Origin: Candidatus Odinarchaeia archaeon
GTDB lineage: Archaea > Asgardarchaeota > Odinarchaeia > Odinarchaeales > Odinarchaeaceae
Direction: 5' to 3'
Assembly: GCA_029856525.1 (NCBI GenBank)
Contig: JAHQXC010000015.1
Coordinates: 1-21,248 of the forward strand
Length of the DNA stretch: 21,248 bases
Positions 3,653 to 5,123 of the stretch are shown here, one piece after another. Under the pieces are notes generated by a model. That model was not told the origin of the DNA. It did not search any database and saw only the letters and a program-made list of their open reading frames with translations. The translations under genes were made by a program, and so were the position numbers. Every line of letters starts with the position of its first letter. The stretch's first letter is position 1.

Positions 3653-3705
3653 GTAGAGGTGATTAATAGCTAAATATGTTTAAATGAAATTTGAAGGGTG
3701 ACCTT

Positions 3706-5123
3706 ATGAAAGAATACCCTTATCTACCAAATGTACCTGATAAGATTAAGCGGATGATGTTAGATGAGATAGGCGTGAATTCGATAGAGCAGCTATACTC
3801 TGATATTCCAGCGGATATTCTTCTAAGAAGGAATCTGAATCTCCCTGAATCCAAGTCTGAGAGTGAAGTTTACCGTGAAACTGTTCGAATTCTAAGAAAA
3901 AACAGGGCTTTAGATTATTCTAAGATATTTGTAGGCGCAGGGGTTTGGCCTCATCTTATCCCCTCAATAGTCGGTGTTCTACTCAGCCGCGGGGAATTCC
4001 TGACCGCCTACACCCCATAGCTGTGTTTTAATAAACACGGCGGGGAGATCAAGCGGAAGCCTCTCAGGGAATTCTCCAAGCCTTCTACGAGTATCAGAGC
4101 ATGATGGCTGAGCTTTTAGAGATAGATGTTGTAAACGAGTCCATGTACGACTGGGCTTCAGCTTTAGGTGAAGCTGCTTTAATGTGTAATCGCCTTAATA
4201 AGAGGGGGAAGTTTCTAATACCTGAAATCATACACCCTGACCGTTACTCAACGCTTATATCCTATACTGATAGCGCTGGAATAGAAGTTGTTAAAGTTAA
4301 ATATGACCGGGATAGCGGTAAGCTTGATCTAGCCGATTTAAAATCGAAGATGAACGGTGATGTAACCGCTGTCTATGTTGAAAATCCAAGCTATCTCGGA
4401 GTCATAGAAGACCAGGTTGATGAAATTTCCAGTATTTGTAAAAGCAATGAATCACTGTTCGTGGTCGGCGTGGACCCTACCTCTCTTGGTATAATTAAAC
4501 CTCCTGGAGCTTATGGAGCTGATATTATTATAGGAGAAGGCCAGCCTTTCGGATCTCCTATCAACTATGGAGGTCCGCTGCTAGGGATCTTCGCGTGTAG
4601 AGACGACAAGAAAATGATCAGACAGCTACCAGGCCGCTTAATCGGTATGACTACTACAATAGAAGGCGGTGAGCGCGGTTATGTGATGACTTTAACCTCT
4701 AGAGAACAGCATATAAAAAGGGAGAAGGCTACATCTAATATATGCTCTAATGAAGGCTTGTTAACTGTTGCAGCTGCAATATACATGGCGGCTCTCGGTA
4801 AAAACGGGATTATTAAACTGAGCAAGAATATTTTCTATAATACACAGTATTTGATGAGAAGGCTTCAAGAAATTGAATCTATTACAAGCCCTGTTTTTAA
4901 CAGCGTTCACTTTAAAGAGTTTACAGTTAACATTGACAGGGTTAAATTATCTTGCTCTGAATTCCAGGGGAAATTGTTAGAGAAAGGGTTAATCTTCGGT
5001 AAATCCGTGGAGCGTGAGTATCCTGAGCTCGGTAAAACATTATTAGCCTGCACAACAGAGGTTCACTTAAAAGAGGATTTAGATTACCTGGCGAATAGTA
5101 TCCGCGAGGTGGTTGAAGCATGA
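3706..5123 (+). CDS. gcvPA: Glycine dehydrogenase (decarboxylating) subunit 1, intron-containing: join(3706..4018,4048..5123), 462 aa
   Basis: ATG at 3706 follows AAGGGTGA. Exon 1 ends ...[11 protein letters not shown] and exon 2 begins AT-CAA-GCG-GAA-GCC-TCT-CAG-GGA, so the join gives [27 protein letters not shown]. Downstream GcvPA motifs are intact (NESMYD, GEGQPFG, GGP.LG, LTSREQHIKREKATSNICSN). Spliced length is 1389 nt, or 463 codons. Confidence 0.93.
4019..4047 (+). other. Predicted 29-nt archaeal BHB intron within the gcvPA mRNA
   Basis: CCCC(4013-16), bulge AT|A(4017-19), 9-bp hairpin GCTGTGTTT-TAAT-AAACACGGC(4020-41), GGGG(4042-45), bulge AG|A(4046-48). Cleavage after the second nucleotide of each bulge reconstitutes TAT (Tyr) and the reading frame. 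Confidence 0.9.

Follow-up and report, generated by a model that had tools for sequence, protein, structure and literature searches.

The window, i.e., the whole stretch of 21,248 nt from a Candidatus Odinarchaeia archaeon that was analysed here, carries the gene gcvPA for subunit 1 of the glycine cleavage P-protein, which is followed by gcvPB. The gcvPA frame is broken by a UAG stop codon (4018-4020) and picks up again in a different frame. Taking out positions 4019-4047 joins CCAU to AUCAA and brings back the conserved TAYTPYQAE motif, giving CCAU/AUCAAGCG as the predicted spliced junction (the slash marks the joint). Likewise, exon 1 accounts for positions 9-99 and exon 2 for positions 101-426 of the Pfam GDC-P profile, which makes the two matches contiguous. 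The intron ends were set by the cut-site rule of the cbf5 introns, for which the consulted passages of PMC2738675 place the cut between nucleotides two and three of the bulge. As expected of a cbf5-type intron, excision at the bulges restores the reading frame. The coordinates of all features are collected in Table 1; a search of the whole window with ARAGORN returned no tRNA.

Table 1 Features of the interrupted gcvPA gene and locations of two further introns of the same genome
Feature	Location	Strand	Remarks
gcvPA exon 1	3691..4018	+	Start TTG 3691 or ATG 3706; ends at the second nucleotide of the 5' bulge
Helix A, 5' arm	3991..4003	+	Distal helix; codons G E F L and first base of T
Helix B, 5' arm (CCGC)	4004..4007	+	Proximal helix; reaches 4009 in relatives
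Internal loop, 5' side (CUACA)	4008..4012	+	Parts the exon helices from the motif core in predicted folds
Central helix H, exon strand (CCCC)	4013-4016	+	Pairs with GGGG 4042-4045; invariant in 5 genomes
5' bulge (AUA)	4017-4019	+	Cut 4018/4019; overlaps the in-frame UAG 4018-4020
Intron, 29 nt	4019-4047	+	Excision restores the frame; inner helix covaries in 5 genomes
Inner helix h'	4020-4028 with 4033-4041	+	Loop UAAU 4029-4032
Central helix H, intron strand (GGGG)	4042-4045	+	Within the 29-nt intron
Internal loop, 3' side (AGAUCAA)	4046..4052	+	Holds the 3' cut 4047/4048
gcvPA exon 2	4048..5123	+	Pfam GDC-P match 101-426
Helix B, 3' arm (GCGG)	4053..4056	+	Proximal helix
Unpaired spacer of 7 nt from helix B to helix A	4057..4063	+	Third codon positions (4061; adjacent 4064) vary freely in the genus
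Helix A, 3' arm	4064..4077	+	G4067 bulged; codons S Q G I L and first base of Q
gatA (amidase) intron, 29 nt	L114:1070-1098 (G000 contig C23:3669-3697)	-	Bulge-helix-bulge
Radical-SAM gene intron, 29 nt	L115:776-804 (G000 contig C124:8175-8203)	-	Canonical bulge-helix-bulge

An intron is present at the same site in all five gcvPA-bearing genomes of the class, which comprises seven genomes. Its length is 29, 29, 29, 30 and 29 nt, and the offset between the exon frames shifts accordingly; the 30-nt intron of genome G003 thus leaves both exons of that gene in one frame. This match of length and frame across genomes provides strong indirect evidence that the intron would be excised at the bulges and, judged from sequence, positions 4019-4047 represent a real bulge-helix-bulge intron in gcvPA. 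In G003 (L004:2396-2543, minus strand), the exons are parted only by the in-frame UAG, and an annotator could take this gcvPA for a case of stop-codon readthrough. Three further proteins (P0004, P0005 and P0006, with 77, 71 and 66% identity and approximately 340 aa) are probably split too.

At its 5' cut site, the core of the motif is a textbook case, a 3-nt bulge being flanked by the 4-bp central helix on one side and the covarying inner hairpin on the other. The central helix, as found in the strict hBHBh' motif, is predicted with pair probabilities of 0.77-0.91; since it does not change in the five genomes, covariation speaks neither for nor against it. The inner helix adjoins the 5' bulge with 9 bp, seven of which are altered on both sides among the five genomes. 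In contrast, two other elements of a strict hBHBh' motif, namely two opposed 3-nt bulges and an outer helix h of at least 2 bp beside the 3' bulge, are missing. The 3' site (AGA, 4046-4048) is located inside a 5 x 7 internal loop instead, and the nearest exon helix is 5 to 7 nt off. The only possible adjoining outer pair is A4012-U4049, to which the initial annotation had assigned the direct closure of the motif. This pair is predicted with a probability of at most 0.07, however, and the loop stays open. Hence, the 3' cut falls in the internal loop rather than a closed bulge of 3 nt, which makes the motif a relaxed one of the HBh' type, consisting of H, B and h' with the second cut in a loop. 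The relaxed character had already been recognised in the initial annotation.

The internal loop is closed by a proximal helix of 4-6 bp (helix B), which is followed by a 7-nt gap and a distal helix of 10-13 bp (helix A). Direct reading of the window recovers both helices exactly as first described (3991-4003 with 4064-4077 and 4004-4007 with 4053-4056), with helix A comprising 13 bp, a bulged G4067 and G3993-U4075 as its sole G-U pair. Both helices are part of the minimum-energy fold in every context from 87 to 487 nt (87, 111, 187, 287 and 487 nt), and this fold differs from that of dinucleotide shuffles with z = -4.6 (87 nt) and z = -3.2 (111 nt). The ten core pairs have a mean ensemble probability of 0.86 at 37 °C, which falls to 0.79 at 70 °C and 0.57 at 80 °C. 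Folding without the intron, which had been suggested as a check, leaves all 17 bp in place, with a loop of 16 nt, at about -18.7 kcal/mol, and no pairs are gained. Moreover, the cleaved halves are predicted by cofolding to stay annealed, with a ddG of -15.0 kcal/mol at 37 °C and -9.4 kcal/mol at 70 °C. The helices had been proposed as an outer scaffold that stabilises the motif; the core alone folds at -18.3 kcal/mol and, being stable on its own, needs no scaffold in order to form. RNAalifold additionally proposed to pair 3975-3986 with 4085-4101 outside these helices, where there is little covariation. As no run of U follows the helix on direct reading, it was not treated as a terminator. An interpretation of the arms as terminal inverted repeats of an inserted element was rejected, both arms encoding conserved residues.

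Regarding the splicing machinery, two EndA paralogues of 188 and 187 aa are encoded in the genome (contigs C56 and C61), both matching PF01974 and PF02778. The catalytic His, as read by eye, is missing in the second one, in keeping with a pair made up of a catalytic and a structural subunit. By these features of its proteins, the pair represents the (alpha-beta)2 type; an EndA of this type with a broad-specificity loop is reported from Asgard archaea including Odinarchaeota (PMC5829648). A relaxed motif fits such a two-subunit enzyme. RtcB is encoded as well. Its Pfam match (L207, G000 contig C95:1006-1164, minus strand) covers profile positions 1-50 of 426 in an open frame of 438 aa, and the gene may be interrupted or divergent. 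The rRNA operon has a G+C content of 56-58% compared to 38.5% for the genome, which suggests that the host is a thermophile.

Our preferred explanation, to which we give about an even chance of being right, is that the helix constitutes an exon-exon clamp which replaces the absent outer helix and holds the mRNA halves together for ligation, being helpful but not essential. In place of the missing outer helix, the clamp would set the geometry at the 3' site for the two-subunit EndA with its broad specificity. With both ends of the intron cut, exon 1 would no longer be paired to the intron, leaving exon-exon pairs as the only ones to hold the halves. The clamp could then keep these annealed at high temperature until RtcB joins them. 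Selection at synonymous sites would maintain the clamp within the genus, and splicing would be improved by it without depending on it.

The strongest rival, possible though on balance rather unlikely, regards the helix as a by-product of protein coding: the conserved peptides GEF(L)TA and AE..QGILQ are encoded by partly complementary RNA, and chance codons in the ancestor of the genus, inherited by four relatives, did the rest. Most of the complementarity is indeed written by the protein sequence, with approximately 12 of the 17 pairs forced by the amino acids GEFLTA and AE..QGILQ (codons GGN GAR UUY CUN ACN GCN facing GCN GAR ... CAR GGN AUH CUN C). When synonymous codons were redrawn with the genome's own usage in 5000 draws, these amino acids alone gave on average 9.0 of the 13 pairs of helix A and 3.4 of the 4 pairs of helix B. 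The full helix, however, is less frequent than expected from the choice of synonymous codons (P about 0.001-0.006). All 13 pairs of helix A are obtained with P = 0.001 under this null, and the observed duplex energy of -20.6 kcal/mol compares with -8.3 +/- 2.7 for the redrawn sequences, none of the 5000 draws being as strong. A register-free 36-nt statistic yields P = 0.003-0.006, and flanks pairing at -20.6 kcal/mol or below occur at about 1.3% of random coding positions of the window genome. While these values count against a by-product, the feature to which they apply was picked post hoc, which counts in its favour.

Codon choice itself gives a divided picture. The initial annotation had considered the local codons GC-rich for this genome and had related them to selection on RNA structure. 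Minor codons do occur in the helix, namely CTG (7% genome usage), CTC (9%), GCC (14%), ACC (19%) and GGG (19%), whereas TTC, which had been listed among the GC-rich choices, is the preferred Phe codon with 57%. As to the proposed cause, pairing is above the synonymous null, but the C of the GCC codon (4008) breaks a U-A pair of three relatives, as a by-product might. Synonymous conservation of the helix codons (0.70) is not significantly different from the gene-wide value (0.63). The strongest synonymous-site conservation of the gene is found at the junction, from where it reaches about 45 nt into exon 2 (4080-4125, FYEYQ..AEL).

Within the genus, the helix A pairs of 3991-4001 are kept in all four genomes, and the top two pairs (4002-4065 and 4003-4064) occur in the window genome only. 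Helix B is longer in G001, G002 and G003 (CCGCUU/AAGCGG), where the window genome has a C4008-A4052 mismatch. Six pairs of the helix A core are invariant, and in four a single partner differs (G-C/G-U or G-U/A-U). The exon-helix pairs of the five genomes include no compensatory double change; with no pair altered on both sides, there is no true covariation, which suits a by-product. By enumeration, seven of the eight possible synonymous transitions in the helix A core preserve pairing. The one-sided changes therefore prove little, being expected from the structure of the code. The comparison of synonymous sites that had been proposed at the outset thus yielded no double changes, but it did reveal constraint of another kind: six pair-critical degenerate sites (3993, 4005, 4055, 4070, 4073 and 4076) are without any pair-breaking change in the genus, for which gene-wide rates give a joint P of about 0.013. 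For reference, the gene as a whole has a transversion at half of its four-fold sites in the genus and 60% of its Ile codons vary, and the unpaired third positions 4002, 4008, 4061 and 4064 are all variable. Exon pairing exceeds its own synonymous null in all four genus genomes (z = -2.8 to -5.1), which, as these are close kin from one genus, amounts to roughly one evolutionary observation.

Genome G005, a member of the sister family, carries the same intron with a relaxed 3' site in an intact frame of 465 aa. Here, the exons pair no better than under the null (z = 0.0, -7.7 kcal/mol) and the exon stem is absent from the 147-nt fold. The long helix is hence not required for intron retention, and the lack of excess pairing in G005 agrees with a by-product. 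For the comparison of intron-containing with intron-less genes, 151 distinct intron-less orthologues were available; matches from scans of metagenome and genome contigs, the closest being 55% and 49% identical, served only as such controls. At the same positions, these orthologues form on average 6.0 of the 10 core pairs (maximum 9), with a mean energy of -6.6 +/- 3.1 kcal/mol and a best value of -15.4 kcal/mol. None of the 151 reaches the weakest stem of the intron-bearing genus (-16.6 kcal/mol), which is at odds with a by-product of the encoded peptides. Taken together with G005, these controls suggest that the helix was strengthened after the arrival of the intron, in one genus.

Further evidence comes from other mRNA introns. 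The genome was scanned for inserts of the motif's shape that, once taken out, leave two open frames fused, and three convincing mRNA introns were obtained, in gcvPA, in gatA and in a radical-SAM gene, each of 29 nt and with the layout 4+3+22+4+3. A relaxed genome-wide scan produced 4132 raw matches, mostly gene junctions, and no further convincing mRNA intron. Filtering for the motif in the fold left the same three introns together with two other matches, of which one lies inside the rRNA operon and one is probably a gene junction. The gatA junction lies within the signature GSDTGG/SVRQPA, and the Pfam Amidase matches (positions 2-153 and 156-445) are contiguous. This intron is present in all six genomes of the class that have gatA, with a length of 28, 29 or 30 nt and frames shifting to match. 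Here, too, the 3' site is relaxed, and the exons form a stem of 4 + 8 bp. All six genomes show more exon pairing than expected (z = -1.5 to -3.8), with another 5' arm used by the sister family; such a similar excess in gatA of both families argues against a by-product in gcvPA. The radical-SAM intron resides inside a CxxxCxxC motif (junction CTFRCAY/CQN) and is also present in G001, G002 and G003. It has a canonical motif with a 2-bp outer helix and no clamp. The association of a relaxed 3' site with a clamp, seen across these three cases only, is suggestive. The common layout of the three introns runs from a 4-bp helix through a 3-nt bulge and a 22-nt hairpin to 4 bp and 3 nt, and two of them have a CUUUA(A/G)-like loop; there are hints that they form one intron family. 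Because ordinary gene callers split such genes, metabolic reconstructions of these genomes miscount gcvPA, gatA and the radical-SAM enzyme.

A second rival, which we consider improbable, places the function of the helix in the mature mRNA, where the hairpin persisting in the coding region (about -18.7 kcal/mol) might hold up ribosomes or shield the transcript. The 17-bp hairpin does survive splicing in the predicted fold, and the peak of synonymous-site conservation that reaches from the junction into exon 2 would be in line with such a role. Intron-less orthologues, however, encode the same protein region without the hairpin, which ties it to the intron. Furthermore, no pause function is known at the position of the hairpin, and the energy of the spliced hairpin is less extreme relative to the synonymous null (P = 0.016) than that of the duplex. 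That the helix is older than the intron and offered a structured site for its insertion by reverse splicing or a similar process, as the initial annotation had proposed for a pre-existing mRNA stem, is very improbable and lacks support beyond the basic level of pairing that the peptides encode everywhere (about 6 of 10 core pairs), since none of the 151 intron-less orthologues has a comparably stable stem, the sister family shares the intron without a strong helix, and reverse splicing by an EndA/RtcB pathway is not known as an established mechanism.

The putative exon-exon clamp in gcvPA, if maintained through synonymous-site selection, could also be an instance of a broader rule, i.e., a general, RNA-intrinsic requirement for splicing Asgard mRNAs with relaxed tRNA-type introns, in which exon pairing holds the halves for RtcB in the manner of the XBP1/HAC1 zipper. 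We regard this extension as doubtful. If true, mRNAs would have juxtaposed their own exons in ligase-based splicing before there were eukaryotes. For archaeal mRNAs, documented cases of protein-only splicing are confined to very few genes, and it has hardly been asked how an mRNA, which has no tRNA body, presents a poor motif and stays whole between cutting and ligation. The gcvPA locus offers a compact substrate of 150 nt for this question along with a natural contrast, since the intron occurs without a clamp in the sister family, and gatA has a parallel clamp.

With respect to known systems, an exon-exon helix as such is not new, as half of any bulge-helix-bulge motif is exon. In the split tRNAs of Nanoarchaeum and the processing stems of archaeal pre-rRNA, EndA meets a bulge-helix-bulge motif presented by a long helix, which also keeps two RNA ends together. 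Those helices consist of leaders or spacers that are removed, whereas the arms in gcvPA are retained, protein-constrained coding sequence. A close precedent is the cbf5 pre-mRNA intron of Desulfurococcales and Sulfolobales, which, according to the consulted passages of PMC2738675, has a mostly 'unconventional' bulge-helix-bulge motif and is ascribed to a hetero-oligomeric EndA (Watanabe 2002; Yokobori 2009). As far as these passages describe it, cbf5 has in common with gcvPA a short intron in coding sequence, a relaxed motif and exon as half of the motif. The gcvPA case differs in its gene and its host, a member of an Asgard class, and in a clamp of 4-6 bp plus 10-13 bp set back by an internal loop; its splicing is predicted only. 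An extended clamp is not mentioned for cbf5 in the passages of PMC2738675 consulted, and no paper on an extended exon-exon clamp was found in the literature searched.

The gcvPA motif likewise resembles the relaxed HBh' or bulge-helix-loop introns of tRNAs, which are processed by EndA enzymes, either (alpha-beta)2 or epsilon2 (Marck and Grosjean 2003; PMC5829648), in having a 4-bp helix and an inner helix besides one well-formed bulge. As in these, the second cut falls in a loop, and a two-subunit EndA is encoded in the genome. In tRNA introns, however, the tRNA body holds the exons, while the gcvPA mRNA must bring its own exon-exon pairing. In this respect, the exon zipper of XBP1 and HAC1 mRNA is a parallel, as both involve protein-only mRNA splicing, a tRNA ligase and exon-exon pairs that juxtapose the ends. 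For XBP1 mRNA, which is sealed by RtcB, base pairing of the exons was experimentally found to be a prerequisite for ligation (Peschek 2015, PMC4687415), and the gcvPA halves, according to the cofold prediction, would be held by their pairing, too. In contrast to XBP1 and HAC1, with their twin IRE1 stem-loops, gcvPA would rely on another endonuclease and on a bulge-helix-bulge motif. Moreover, new exon pairs form in XBP1 after ejection of the intron, whereas the gcvPA clamp is pre-formed and none are added. What is new compared with all these systems is an extended, set-back clamp within coding sequence that bears signs of synonymous-site constraint, as well as its location in an Asgard class and within a metabolic gene.
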